DNA of 64,000 bases, from the IMG/VR virus record IMGVR_UViG_3300045988_054550, positions 1 to 64,000 of that record; one strand, 5' to 3'. The translations under genes were made by a program, and so were the position numbers. The notes beneath the pieces were generated by a model. It saw nothing but the letters and a program-made list of their open reading frames with translations, ran no database searches and was not told the DNA's origin. Shown in pieces: positions 63,308 through 64,000 of the stretch; position 1 is the stretch's first letter, and every line of letters starts with the position of its first letter. This stretch comes from a virus.

Positions 63308-63364
63308 AAAAAAGTCCAGTGTGCCGACTTGAACGGCATAAATCTCCCAACGAGAAACACTGGA
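63308..63364 (-). ncRNA. tRNA-like minihelix (7-bp acceptor-like stem + small hairpin + T-arm mimic) ending in T6
   Basis: Minus strand: TCCAGTG..TCTC-GTTGG-GAGA..TGCCG-TTCAAGT-CGGCA-CACTGGA-C-TTTTTT. Confidence 0.45.
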
Positions 63365-63378
63365 ACCGTACGAAATAA

Positions 63379-63413
63379 GAGAAAAAGATTCCAATGATTG
63401 CAGTTCATTGGAA
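63379..63413 (-). terminator. intrinsic terminator
   Basis: Minus strand: TTCCAATGA-ACTGCAA-TCATTGGAA followed by TCTTTTTCTC. Confidence 0.7.
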
Positions 63414-63550
63414 TTGAAAAGGGAAGATTCGAACTTCCATGTACATCCCATGTCCAAAGACACATACTCACCCATTAAGATGTACTATCCTCTGCGTCTG
63501 CCTTTCTATCGTATCGGGTTCATCACCGTCAATAGTTCCGCCACTTTTCA
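63414..63550 (-). ncRNA. oversized (137 nt) tRNA-like element
   Basis: 7-bp acceptor TGAAAAG/CTTTTCA. Canonical T arm GGAAG-TTCGAAT-CTTCC. Type-II-like D arm TGGCGGAA..GGCAGACGC interrupted by a ~33-nt hairpin. No canonical anticodon arm could be found by hand. Confidence 0.45.
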
Positions 63551-63583
63551 ATCAGAGCATTATCACTCAATGCATCAAACGTC

Positions 63584-63697
63584 CATATAGGAGGGGATTT
63601 CCACCCTTTTACTCTCATGCCGCCGGCTAAGGTCACCTAAGTTGTGGGTTTAAACCTATGCTACCACAATAGCGTCTACGTATTCCGCCACTATATG
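63584..63697 (-). ncRNA. oversized (114 nt) tRNA-like element
   Basis: 7-8-bp acceptor (C)CATATAG/CTATATG(G). D arm TGGCGGAATACGTAGACGC. Degenerate T loop GTGGAAATC. Internal 6-bp stem TTGTGG/CCACAA around the palindrome GGTTTAAACC. Confidence 0.4.
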
Positions 63698-63700
63698 GAA

Positions 63701-63772
63701 TCGGAAAGGCAGGAATCGAACCTGCGACACATAGCTTACAATGCCATTGCTCTACCACTGAGCTACATTCCA
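63701..63772 (-). tRNA. tRNA-Thr (anticodon UGU)
   Basis: Hand fold: D arm GCTC-AGTGGTA-GAGC; anticodon arm ATGGC-ATTGTAA-GCTAT; T arm GCAGG-TTCGATT-CCTGC. The acceptor has U1-G72 and a U6-U67 mismatch. Confidence 0.7.
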
Positions 63773-64000
63773 TACCGCCTGTAACGGACAGTTCTCTAAA
63801 AAGAAACTGGGTTGATTCCCACATCACATGCTTTCGGACCGGATGAAAATATCCAGATAAACATTAACCTTTCCATCGTAAAACACATGAACTAGATGGT
63901 TCTTTTAGAATTGCCGACTATCACTTCTCACGGACCGTGGTCTCATCTCTCTAAAAAGTTTTTTACGCAAACGCCTAGTGAGTTGTACGTTTACGCTCAT

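Follow-up and report, generated by a model that had tools for sequence, protein, structure and literature searches.

Three RNAs shaped like tRNAs, which the standard gene finders do not fold as tRNAs, were found behind a tRNA-Thr(UGU) gene in the window, the whole 64,000-nucleotide stretch of viral DNA analysed here. On the minus strand between 63308 and 64000, the tRNA-Thr(UGU) is followed in series by two oversized elements (element 1 and element 2), a hairpin terminator and a minihelix. The preliminary description of this DNA had proposed the same layout, and every element was found at its place on that strand. Comparison with more than 100 related viral contigs showed that compensatory changes keep the acceptor, D and T helices of the three odd elements paired, and element 1, element 2 and the minihelix are under selection for structure. 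Elements 1 and 2 are derived from tRNA-Leu, with the anticodon arm replaced by lineage-specific hairpins. Three families supported by covariation are new here, namely two oversized tRNA-Leu derivatives and one tRNA lacking the anticodon arm and fused to a terminator. The features are as follows, in the direction of the minus strand.

63903..63956, minus strand: spacer hairpin S1, with the outer stem UUUUAGA/UCUAAAA and the inner stem CCG/CGG closing the loop UGAGAAGUGAUAGU.
63773..63816, minus strand: leader directly 5' of the tRNA, with the hairpin CAGUU...AACUG (63809-63789) followed by CCGUUACAGGCGG; it holds a second copy of TTTTTAGAGA.
63701..63772, minus strand: tRNA-Thr(UGU), 72 nt, no encoded CCA (ARAGORN; Rfam RF00005, 59.8 bits, E = 2e-10).
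63582..63699, minus strand: element 1, an oversized RNA of about 116 nt derived from tRNA-Leu (comparison with relatives).
63557..63573, minus strand: linker hairpin between elements 1 and 2, GCAU-UGAGUGAUA-AUGC.
63413..63552, minus strand: element 2, an oversized tRNA-like RNA of about 139 nt (comparison with relatives).
63381..63414, minus strand: intrinsic-terminator-like hairpin AUUCCAAUGA-ACUGCAA-UCAUUGGAAU, then CUUUUUCUCU (terminator scan).
63308..63364, minus strand: minihelix, 57 nt, a tRNA mimic that has no anticodon arm and ends in T6.
63141..63302, minus strand: ribosome-binding site GAGGUG (63302-63297) and the first late-operon ORF (ATG at 63290, 49 aa, Cys-rich; ORF list).

The stretch closes an ORF-free array whose cassettes are tRNAs and tRNA-like RNAs. 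The array lies upstream of a late operon (packaging, head, tail and lysis) on the same strand with anti-repressor, terminase, portal, major head and endolysin genes. The ORF list, the terminator scan and the island in the nearest relative (L039) agreed with the earlier view of an ORF-free structured leader before a long operon. The island also continues beyond the window end, as had been suspected, the ORF-free stretch being about 1.8 kb in L039. No credible ORF was listed in 63780-64000, and small ORFs were rejected as an explanation of the region, the listed ones being short, overlapping and coincident with RNA structures. The array content was highly variable between relatives, even among near-identical phages, and a homologue of the first late ORF also lies 3' of the minihelix in L001. 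The source is a temperate siphovirus-like gut phage of about 77 kb, and the three RNA families belong to an abundant human-gut phage group. The terminase search pointed to Blautia as the probable host; a genome scan for the minihelix as a host finder gave no matches. An attP site or tRNA-gene integration scars were rejected as well: each acceptor stem has both halves present, and the locus lies mid-contig in contigs derived from viral particles, about 59 kb from the integrase (3310-4539).

Conserved hairpins were also found in the spacers. A TCTCTAAAAAG motif previously noted as repeated is the complement of the 5' strand of S1, itself a conserved hairpin. Related loci held 15 variants of S1, in which the inner stem covaries (GCCG/CGGC, CCCG/CGGG, ACCG/CGGU and ACUG/CAGU), and the outer stem becomes UUCCAGA/UCUGGAA in the Blautia prophage L221. 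The leader motif likewise precedes the homologous tRNA in five related loci (L001, L012, L063, L029 and L022), and the linker hairpin stem is GUGU/ACAC in three (L026, L046 and L022), which is a compensatory change. The gene at 63772-63701 is a bona fide, functional-looking tRNA-Thr(UGU); the imperfect acceptor stem reported for it was traced by alignment to a U1.G72 wobble and a U6.U67 mismatch. In the relatives L001, L018 and L221, we observed tRNA variants with shortened anticodon stems.

ARAGORN (standard and intron modes) and Rfam (at the gathering score and at E <= 10) were applied to the region, and the tRNA-Thr was the sole call. A check run with relaxed ARAGORN and Rfam did not fold the odd elements as ordinary tRNAs either. 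The possibility that ordinary tRNAs had been missed by default settings was rejected, since the relaxed and intron modes of ARAGORN gave inconsistent forced calls, e.g., "tRNA-Ile with a 57-nt intron". Element 1 had no ARAGORN call, and neither it nor the minihelix matched the Rfam tRNA model at E <= 10; element 2 gave a 15.8-bit partial match to this model, covering the acceptor and T arm only (gathering score 29 bits). A tmRNA, including the two-piece form, was rejected because ARAGORN -m was negative and the non-tRNA members of clan CL00001 were absent. The suggested link to GOLLD or ROOL did not hold, as the window and the 2 kb of L039 spanning the entire island yielded no Rfam family but tRNA. 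GOLLD (RF01998) and ROOL (RF03087) were absent from the window at the gathering score, from 63250-64000 at E <= 10 and from L039 8300-10300 at E <= 1.

When single sequences were subjected to a fold test, the energies were unexceptional (z about -0.7 to -0.9), so the support for more than chance comes from the relatives. The preliminary description had judged the elements to be tRNA-like, of the wrong size for tRNAs and not due to chance. The negative results of the standard tools and the compensatory changes that keep the acceptor and T-arm pairing were consistent with this judgement. It had also named two findings that would speak against it, an ordinary tRNA fold and the loss of acceptor and T-arm pairings in relatives; we obtained no such fold, and the pairings were conserved.

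Element 1, element 2 and the minihelix share a 7-bp acceptor stem, U8, a D arm bearing GG and a T arm closing onto the acceptor. An anticodon arm with a 5-bp stem, a 7-nt loop and U33 was found in none of the three. Element 1 begins 2 nt past the tRNA-Thr. Its 7-bp acceptor core CATATAG/CTATATG at 63697-63584 gives the 114 nt first reported, and the helix is extendable to 9 bp (63699-63582); U8 and the D arm GGCGGAAUACGUAGACGC follow. The D arm of elements 1 and 2 is typical of tRNA-Leu, as in E. coli and Firmicutes. Two readings of the central region of element 1 were possible: an irregular hairpin of 35 nt, and an anticodon stem UGUGG/CCACA whose loop UUUAAAC is preceded by 9 extra nt. The T stem GAG[AGUAAAA]GGG/CCCCUC consists of 6 bp with a 7-nt bulge and carries the non-canonical loop UGGAAAU. 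Among 23 distinct homologues, six pairs were changed on both sides, including three in the acceptor, one in the D stem and one in the T stem, and the D loop covaried with the T loop at a tertiary pair (CG 16, GC 3, UA 1, other 3). The element 1 fold proposed by RNAalifold was partly non-tRNA and was rejected, only its central hairpin being retained, as an alternative. Variants of element 1 in L177 and L193 carry a hairpin followed by UCG and ACAGCAU, resembling a family of ACAGCAA-bearing tRNA inserts. We did not assign element 1 to this family, as the window copy reads GCGGCAU and its hairpin is without the family's CAUG...GUG signature.

Element 2 has the 7-bp acceptor core TGAAAAG/CTTTTCA at 63550-63415 (136 nt), which is extendable to 9 bp (63552-63413). 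Past the acceptor come U8, the same TGGCGGAA D-arm start as in element 1 and the D stem GCG/CGC. The hairpin that had been placed in the D loop of the longer element was recovered as a 30-nt insertion (63535-63506) that keeps the loop GG. The D arm is followed by an 8-nt linker and then a 45-nt central hairpin (63485-63441). The canonical T arm claimed for this element is present as GGAAG-UUCGAAU-CUUCC at 63438-63422, and the anticodon arm is absent, as had been noted: no 5-bp stem with a 7-nt loop was found even when one insertion per strand was allowed. Among 25 distinct homologues, 98.7% of cells were paired, with 7 double-changed pairs against 1.9 in shuffles, a comparison that is inflated by the relatedness of the homologues, which are of low diversity and all from one phage group. 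Double changes affected 4 of the 5 T-stem pairs. The inserted hairpins covaried too (CGG/CCG to CAG/CUG; GUACAUC/GAUGUAC to GUGCAUC/GGUGCAC).

Element 2 is followed by the clean terminator that had been expected there, a 10-bp hairpin with T5 at 63414-63388 called by the terminator scan (-10.2 kcal/mol, z = -4.06). The same hairpin stands 3' of different upstream elements in four relatives (L016, L061, L068 and L120). In both this hairpin and the minihelix, a stem directly precedes a U-run, as in intrinsic terminators. The body of the minihelix (63364-63315) is followed by C and U6. It comprises the 7-bp acceptor UCCAGUG/CACUGGA, the D arm UCUC-GUUGG-GAGA (4-bp stem), a linker of 5-6 nt (UUUAU) in place of the anticodon arm and the T arm GCCG-UUCAAGU-CGGC (4-bp stem). 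The acceptor and T arm correspond to the minihelix as it was first described, but these are not its only parts; it has a covarying D arm as well, and is therefore a tRNA minus its anticodon arm. The minihelix is present in more than 120 related contigs. Across 14 distinct variants, 100% of 210 cells were paired, and 8 of the 15 pairs were double-changed, against 0 of 500 shuffles (similarly inflated by relatedness); the D stem is the sole unbiased test in this set because the variants were gathered by a filter demanding T-stem and acceptor pairing. We regard the minihelix as a terminator because of the T-run at its end, and a run of T5-T9 lies 0-1 nt past the 7-bp closing stem in 14/14 variants. 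It was not reported by the terminator scan, being a three-way junction rather than a simple unbranched hairpin. The U-run ends 18 nt before the first late ORF, and this gap holds the ribosome-binding site. The corresponding position in the Blautia prophage L221, which is more distant, is taken by a closed hairpin with a T-run that is not tRNA-shaped, and a covariance model of the minihelix, run on diverse Ro60-like loci and Blautia prophages, found none outside the window's own phage group.

Taken together, these results point to non-decoding RNAs built on a tRNA scaffold and excised like tRNAs, with a minihelix that doubles as terminator and processing signal. We favour this reading and give it about an even chance of being correct. 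According to it, the array would be transcribed from upstream of the window, and the stretch would form the promoter-distal end of a polycistronic array in the late-operon leader. The parts of the tRNA retained here are, by established tRNA biochemistry, those read by RNase P, the 3' trimming enzymes and the CCA-adding enzyme. RNase P and 3' trimming would excise element 1, element 2 and the minihelix as tRNAs, the tRNA core serving as a stabilising scaffold. Elements 1 and 2 would not decode; their substituted arms would be the working parts, offered in trans to a tRNA-binding factor of the phage-host conflict as a ligand or a decoy. The minihelix would act in cis as the intrinsic terminator closing the array, and the late genes would therefore need read-through. 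On read-through transcripts, it would be a cutting site for RNase P and RNase Z that frees a late mRNA with a short 5' UTR.

Another explanation, which we consider rather unlikely, is that elements 1 and 2 are decaying tRNA-Leu pseudogenes, the junk of duplication and recombination in a fast-evolving tRNA array, and that only the minihelix and terminator matter. The two elements are confined to one phage group and were present in 14/103 relatives found via the minihelix alone (about 14%); they form one accessory cassette that is dispensable, 86% of the relatives being without it. Damaged copies occur, including an element 1/element 2 chimera whose ends no longer pair (L150), an internal duplication (L013) and unpaired substitutions in L063, L013 and L181. 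The degenerate T loop and bulged T stem of element 1 would also suit decay, as would other unrecognised tRNA-like remnants in the same arrays (L039 9390-9462; L001 3445-3513). Against this, compensatory changes hold the acceptor, D and T helices and the tertiary pair despite indels elsewhere, and they extend to the inserted hairpins. Moreover, element 2 keeps about 95% identity over 50 contigs in which the neighbouring elements have been reshuffled, and the two elements travel together with a covarying linker hairpin between them, co-occurring in 49/49 loci with a spacing of 26-30 nt in 48/49.

The second reading of the central region of element 1 raises the question of decoding. Element 1, and less plausibly element 2, could be a tRNA-Leu that is interrupted by small insertions, either removed or tolerated, and matures to a tRNA able to decode, perhaps one that suppresses missense or nonsense mutations, which is conceivable because LeuRS ignores the anticodon. 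Element 1 can indeed be read as UGUGG, 9 nt, UUUNAAC and CCACA, followed by a class II-like long variable arm CUUAGG-UGA-CCUAAG, and its middle anticodon position takes all four bases (UAA, UGA, UCA and UUA). Insertion-bearing tRNAs of many anticodons occur in related arrays, and Lak phage tRNAs bear enigmatic introns (PMC6784885). In spite of these points, we consider decoding very unlikely. The T loop of element 1 is without U55 and C56, and 10 extra nt lie between the variable arm and the T stem. Its long-hairpin fold fits the variation at least equally well, with 99.1% pairing against 97.8% and 72.8% for the alternatives, and only a stem with a 16-nt loop could be reconstituted as its anticodon arm. 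No anticodon arm could be reconstituted in element 2, where the candidate U33 varies between U, G and A. The ORFs of the window are intact under the standard code. In addition, we know of no bacterial machinery that removes such tRNA insertions.

It has also been considered that the elements act like Y RNAs and join a phage Ro60-like protein in a particle for RNA quality control or repair, comparable to that of YrlA or Yrn1 with Rsr. In 34 related loci, a 486-aa DUF2828-vWA gene lies directly upstream on the same strand, and the order gene, tRNA-Thr, element 1, element 2 was found in L012, L063 and L216. A structure comparison was needed for this protein because single-sequence and profile searches against the PDB gave a weak vWA match only. 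In Foldseek, the best 11 matches were full-length Ro60/TROVE proteins (E 2.6e-7 to 3e-5), obtained with a predicted structure of low confidence (pLDDT 58), and PHROG 850 annotates the protein as an "RNA-binding protein". Bacterial Y RNAs are tRNA mimics encoded beside Ro60, some of them cut by RNase P and CCA-tailed (PMC4201824), and the order in Yrn1 is unpermuted, D then T. Such a partnership nevertheless has little chance of being right for the present elements. No DUF2828-vWA gene was found in the 64-kb window or in 10 kb upstream in L039, and the gene was present at only 7 of about 30 element 2 loci with enough flank, which is not above background. The Rfam YrlA model reached at best 13.9 bits, where the gathering score is 69; this match spans two elements, the T arm of the tRNA and the D arm of element 1. 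A tRNA with an ACAGCAA insert just upstream is a better candidate partner of the Ro60-like gene. Ro60-like (DUF2828-vWA) phage genes sit in tRNA arrays across diverse phages, beside tRNAs split by a conserved ACAGCAA-bearing insertion of 39-57 nt, a pattern suggestive of an undescribed RNA-protein system.

Finally, a stretch acting in cis only, as a leader for late-gene antitermination or attenuation like lambda 6S/tR' or the HK022 put RNA and yielding no stable RNAs, would suit the two serial terminators before the late operon with no promoter room after them, the absence of a sigma-70-like promoter in a scan of the minus strand over the last 1.2 kb of the window (62800-64000) and the conserved small hairpins (S1, linker and pre-tRNA leader), but it is highly improbable, given that antitermination needs no tRNA-like acceptor, T and D features, that a genuine tRNA lies within the same transcript, and that elements 1 and 2 are not required for late-operon control because they are absent from most relatives with the same operon and minihelix.

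Several known systems resemble parts of this arrangement. The tRNA-like domain of tmRNA, like the minihelix, has an acceptor stem, a T arm, a reduced D region and no anticodon arm; the minihelix differs in having no mRNA-like domain and C3-G70 in place of G3.U70. MALAT1 mascRNA, the tRNA-miRNA TMERs of MHV68 and the engineered tRNA scaffold each use a module of tRNA shape to bring in RNase P and RNase Z, by which RNA ends are defined or an attached non-tRNA hairpin is stabilised and released. Unlike the phage elements here, those systems are eukaryotic, viral pol III or synthetic. To our knowledge, there is no bacterial or phage example of a U-run terminator fused to an acceptor stem. Phage tRNA arrays are now seen as weapons against tRNA-destroying defences. 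P2 OLD removes tRNA anticodon arms, phage tRNA-Thr(UGU) genes rescue the cells, and the phage tRNAs resistant to OLD have altered or shorter anticodon stems (PMC12445682). The setting of such counter-defence tRNAs, a hypervariable array with tRNA-Thr(UGU), is like that described here; they and the Lak phage tRNAs decode, whereas element 2 and the minihelix are without any anticodon arm. Such a context would suit the role first raised as an alternative, that of decoys or substrates in the conflict with tRNA-targeting host defences. Because tRNA finders and Rfam pass over them, non-decoding look-alikes in these arrays are almost absent from catalogues.

The closest analogues are the bacterial Y RNAs and RNAC and RNAD of phage T4. 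The Y RNAs (YrlA, RF02553; D. radiodurans Yrn1; bound by Ro60/Rsr) are about 100-130 nt long and contain a tRNA-like module (T arm, D arm and tertiary pairs) with no decoding anticodon. YrlA is circularly permuted relative to tRNA (T-acceptor-D), with a Ro-binding stem formed from its 5' and 3' ends and a GNCGAAN0-1G motif. Unlike YrlA, element 1, element 2 and the minihelix keep the tRNA order, and the motif was absent from them by inspection.

In the locus of T4, a lytic E. coli myovirus, tRNA-Arg is followed by RNAD (species 2, 119 nt) and RNAC (species 1, 139 nt) with gaps of 1 and 6 nt, an oversized pair at the distal end of the phage tRNA cluster directly after a tRNA. Direct comparison revealed the same type of layout in the window, with non-tRNA RNAs of about 120 and 140 nt after the cluster-end tRNA and a gap of 2 nt between tRNA-Thr and element 1, and the shorter RNA comes first in each (119 and 139 nt in T4; about 116 and about 139 nt for elements 1 and 2). 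In RNAC, an imperfect closure resembling an acceptor is combined with two long hairpins and the canonical T arm CCGGG-UUCGAAU-CCCGG; unlike elements 1 and 2, RNAC is without a Leu-type D arm, and RNAD has no clear tRNA fold (z = -0.8). BLASTN (word size 7, E <= 1e-5) found no similarity between elements 1 and 2 and the T4 locus (L220), and the likeness is therefore an analogy of architecture and position. The function of RNAC and RNAD is still unknown (PMC3014915, PMC9697503), and the literature on T4 "species 1 RNA" went no further than "function unknown". A wider proposal, which we hold as a doubtful speculation, is that element 1, element 2 and the minihelix belong to an unrecognised repertoire of non-decoding tRNA-scaffold RNAs, matured by the host and serving as decoys or ligands in tRNA conflict. 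They might, for example, soak up nucleases or transferases that read the acceptor, T arm or elbow, the minihelix might mimic a tRNA cleaved by an OLD-type nuclease, or they might load Ro60-like particles. If this were true, the same functional class would have its founding members in T4 RNAC and RNAD, which have lacked an explanation for about 50 years. Since the layout matches that of RNAC and RNAD, this old question becomes approachable by comparison.

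On the minus strand, the last 700 bases of the window contained only short overlapping ORFs, none of them credible. The preliminary description had placed a tRNA and several tRNA-like RNAs there (63308-64000), and this placement was confirmed; in 5' to 3' order, the features were as follows.

63772-63701, minus strand: tRNA-Thr(UGU), called by ARAGORN and by Rfam (59.8 bits)
63699-63582, minus strand: el1, an oversized tRNA-Leu-derived RNA, starting 2 bases 3' of tRNA-Thr(UGU)
63552-63413, minus strand: el2, a second such RNA, separated from el1 by a 29-nt linker
63414-63388 plus T5, minus strand: hairpin terminator (terminator scan; fold z = -4.1)
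63364-63315, minus strand: minihelix, a 50-nt tRNA mimic without an anticodon arm, followed by C and T6
63290, minus strand: ATG of the first late ORF, with its ribosome-binding site, 18 nt past the minihelix T-run

The tRNA-Thr(UGU) was the sole ARAGORN tRNA in the whole 64-kb window, and the Rfam alignment bore out the imperfect acceptor stem described for it, with one U.G and one U.U. The same strand, 3' of the leader, carried small Cys-rich ORFs, an Ant-like anti-repressor, terminase, portal, major head protein, endolysin and, lastly, integrase. Given these late genes and the integrase on the same strand, the stretch is the leader of the late operon of a phage that is tailed and temperate. 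The first ORFs of the operon (62879-63253 and 63141-63290, minus strand) encoded small Cys-rich proteins with CxxC pairs and a sub-threshold DnaJ-type zinc-finger match (22.7 bits against a cut-off of 32.7); their homologues in relatives likewise came after the minihelix. The loop motif UGAG..GUGAUA was observed in three different conserved leader hairpins (63903-63956, 63557-63573 and the el2 internal loop at about 63470-63460), and may represent a shared protein-binding site.

In Rfam searches at E <= 10, el2 yielded only a 15.8-bit partial match, to the acceptor and T arm. A 13.9-bit YrlA hit joined the T arm of the tRNA to the D arm of el1 and was rejected. ARAGORN with introns allowed made no call for el1, el2 or the minihelix, its calls at lowered thresholds were forced and mutually contradictory, and its tmRNA search was negative. 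The suggested kinship with GOLLD or ROOL was rejected, because neither these nor any other Rfam family besides tRNA matched in searches of the window. The single-sequence folding energies of the three elements were unremarkable, and the case therefore rests on comparison with relatives.

A minihelix pattern scan of IMG/VR recovered more than 119 contigs of 40-85 kb, and further scans added variants. One faecal virome contig (L001) was syntenic with the window, and the terminase shared 76% identity with that of Blautia MAG prophages, so that the host is probably a member of the Lachnospiraceae. The minihelix preceded the late operon in all these related phages. In its 14 distinct variants, the acceptor had 7 bp, and the D stem (loop GUUGG) and the T stem (loop UUCAAGU), separated by a linker, had 4 bp each. 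All 210 of 210 cells were paired, with both-sided changes in 8 of 15 pairs and with shuffles and slid registers all far below; the collection filter had demanded T-stem and acceptor pairing, and the unbiased part of this test is the D stem, which occurred as UCUC/GAGA, CCAC/GUGG, UCAC/GUGA and UCGC/GCGA.

For el2, 98.7% of cells were paired among 25 distinct copies (95% identical), and double changes were found in 7 pairs against 1.9 expected, although such covariation statistics are inflated by shared ancestry, because all homologues came from one phage group. These changes fell in the T stem (4 of 5 pairs), the central hairpin, the D-loop hairpin and the acceptor extension (one each). The 23 distinct copies of el1, which represented three sequence types, showed double changes in three acceptor pairs, in the D stem (GCG/CGC vs GAG/CUC) and in the T stem (GAGGGG/CCCCUC vs GAUAGG/CCUAUC). 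Furthermore, a D-loop base of el1 covaried with the third T-loop base (C:G 16, G:C 3, U:A 1, other 3), as expected of the tRNA G19:C56 elbow pair. The middle of el1 was ambiguous: the variation was fitted slightly better by a 35-nt irregular hairpin (99.1% paired) than by the alternative of an anticodon stem with a variable arm (97.8% and 72.8%), and double changes were absent from both readings. Judged from the aligned sequences, the tRNA-core helices were, qualitatively, clearly compensated repeatedly and independently. These results indicated that el1, el2 and the minihelix are quite likely functional structured RNAs. The view that they are tRNA-like beyond chance and not ordinary tRNAs was upheld by the compensatory changes, and by ARAGORN and Rfam calling only tRNA-Thr(UGU).

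The 5' parts of both el1 and el2 were tRNA-Leu-like, with a 7-bp acceptor, U8 and then G-GCG-GAA...AGA-CGC. In el2, the D loop kept GG and carried a 30-nt hairpin in its variable region. From the D arm to the T arm of el2 there followed a linker of 8 nt and then a 45-nt hairpin whose internal loop was conserved; a 5-bp stem closing a 7-nt loop could not be reconstituted even with insertions allowed, and the only U33 candidate varied between U, G and A. In turn, el1 could be read as UGUGG, 9 nt, UUUNAAC, CCACA and a class-II-like arm, with all four bases seen at the loop position N (GGUUU[N]AAC), a T loop without U55 and C56, and 10 extra nt before the T stem.

The two elements were always found together (49 of 49 loci), with 26-30 nt between them; the one exception was L150 (2254-2405), where an el1/el2 recombinant was fused at the common TGGCGGAA and its ends no longer paired. 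Another locus (L013, 430-580) had a 26-nt tandem duplication within the el2 D-loop hairpin; both cases suggest that the cassette is still decaying or turning over. Among 103 relatives found via the minihelix alone, 14 had both elements, and in L001-type genomes a tRNA was followed directly by the minihelix, with el1 and el2 absent.

The content 5' of the minihelix varied even between near-identical genomes, and included tRNAs (Met, Gln, Tyr, Ser, Arg and Thr) along with several tRNA-like elements that had gone unrecognised, and structured spacers that were conserved. One 72-nt tRNA backbone carried the anticodon UGA, UCA (opal-reading) or CCA among near-identical phages (L009, L007, L026 and L016, at -118..-47 relative to the minihelix). 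Further tRNA-like elements were missed or mis-called (L039 9390-9462, L001 3445-3513, L221 2737-2803, and directly 5' of the minihelix in L018/L022), including a family, labelled 'Cys(aca)' or '???' by ARAGORN, in which the anticodon stem had 4 bp and the pentaloop ACAAA was conserved. As had been anticipated, the structure ran past the window end, which cuts through an ORF-free island of about 1.8 kb in the nearest relative, L039. Just past this end, a conserved spacer, about 330 nt long and free of ORFs, lay between tRNAs (L039 9061-9390; also in L009, L016, L068 and the Blautia prophage L221, 2060-2345). It contained the motifs CGAUACGGCG, GGAGUUUUCAAGAGA and UAGUGGAAAGCAUAACACGAUAAACAUAUUGCUAACCCGG-N4-CCGGGUU and a covarying terminal hairpin (ACGGCA/UGCCGU in L221), had no match in Rfam, and is possibly a larger ncRNA.

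In established tRNA biochemistry, the acceptor/T-arm helix and the elbow are the features by which RNase P, 3' trimming enzymes and the CCA-adding enzyme recognise their substrates. Because exactly these parts are conserved and the decoding part is lost, we interpret el1 and el2 as RNAs that are built on a tRNA scaffold but do not decode; they would mature as tRNAs do, and their working parts are likely the substituted arms. A run of T5-T9 lay within 0-1 nt 3' of every minihelix variant, and between the U-run and the start codon there was room for a ribosome-binding site only. In the more distant L221, the slot held another closed hairpin (AUCUGUG...CACAGAU) with a T-run, which was not tRNA-shaped. 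From the T-run in every variant and this L221 hairpin, termination looks like the conserved role of the slot, and the tRNA shape like a lineage-specific elaboration; the minihelix covariance model had no matches outside the phage group of the window. No promoter-like site was found on the minus strand in the last 1.2 kb of the window. With two serial terminators before the late genes (the 63414-63388 hairpin and the minihelix), late transcription would have to read through both, and RNase P and RNase Z would then be able to release the late mRNA from the read-through transcript by cutting at the tRNA-shaped element. We consider the chances of this specific scaffold-plus-terminator mechanism to be even.

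Collectively, el1, el2 and the minihelix are new lineage-restricted variants of the non-decoding tRNA mimics of phage tRNA clusters, which are known but poorly understood. The nearest parallel was the T4 cluster, in which tRNA-Arg is followed after 1 nt by RNAD (119 nt) and, 6 nt later, by RNAC (139 nt), whose fold (z = -4.6) combines a canonical T arm with two long hairpins and an acceptor-like closure. No function has yet been assigned to RNAC or RNAD (PMC3014915, PMC9697503). The T4 pair matched el1 and el2 in order, spacing and size, but sequence similarity to the T4 locus was not detectable; the relationship is an analogy, and homology is not demonstrated.

The second parallel was with bacterial Y RNAs, which are tRNA mimics with genes beside Ro60 (PMC4201824). 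In 34 related loci, a gene for a 486-aa DUF2828-vWA protein lay directly 5' of the array; PHROGs labels it an RNA-binding protein, and the top 11 PDB matches of its AlphaFold model (low confidence, pLDDT 58) were Ro60/TROVE over the full length. A functional link to this Ro60-like protein is possible. Membership of the three elements in the Y RNA family is not supported, since the gene is absent from the window and from L039, el2 loci were not enriched for it, the YrlA model of Rfam was unmatched and the topology here was not permuted.

Outside the window, among 80 diverse viral contigs (L325-L404) encoding a Ro60-like protein (39-96% identity), the gene (DUF2828-vWA, PHROG 850; also L001 1933-3393) lay within a same-strand tRNA array in 66. 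Just 5' of it were 112-127-nt elements that the Rfam tRNA model matched (37-53 bits) and ARAGORN missed, corresponding to tRNAs of many anticodons (Val, Pro, Thr, Gly, Lys, Arg, Phe and Leu). Their anticodon stem was split on its 5' strand (at 28/29, 29/30 or 31/32) by a 39-57-nt insertion with a closing stem, a covarying hairpin (..CAUGNNNGUG..) and the motif ACAGCAA. Examples, among others, are listed below.

L331 2222-2339: ACAGCAA-insert tRNA
L329 1974-2087: ACAGCAA-insert tRNA
L024 2723-2835: ACAGCAA-insert tRNA
L353 2233-2347: ACAGCAA-insert tRNA
L363 2193-2308: ACAGCAA-insert tRNA
L404 5822-5932: ACAGCAA-insert tRNA
L242 10274-10385: ACAGCAA-insert tRNA

Such a tRNA lay at most 700 nt 5' of the Ro60-like gene in 46 of 77 loci, and no insertion-free copy was seen in the loci compared. 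The insertion, which resembles the 'enigmatic introns' reported for tRNAs of Lak phages (PMC6784885), may represent a small intron or insertion of a new class, or else an arm that binds protein. In L391 (6126-6188), a phage tRNA array also contained, beside a Ro60-like gene, a Pistol self-cleaving ribozyme (RF02679, 63.6 bits).

Finally, the elements may, as the preliminary description also suggested, be decoys in the conflict with host defences that target tRNAs. P2 OLD is lethal because it removes the anticodon arm of tRNA-Thr(UGU), and cells are rescued by phage genes for tRNA-Thr(UGU) in which the anticodon stem is altered or shortened (PMC12445682). The array described here has a tRNA-Thr(UGU), and its relatives have versions with the 4-bp stem and ACAAA pentaloop.
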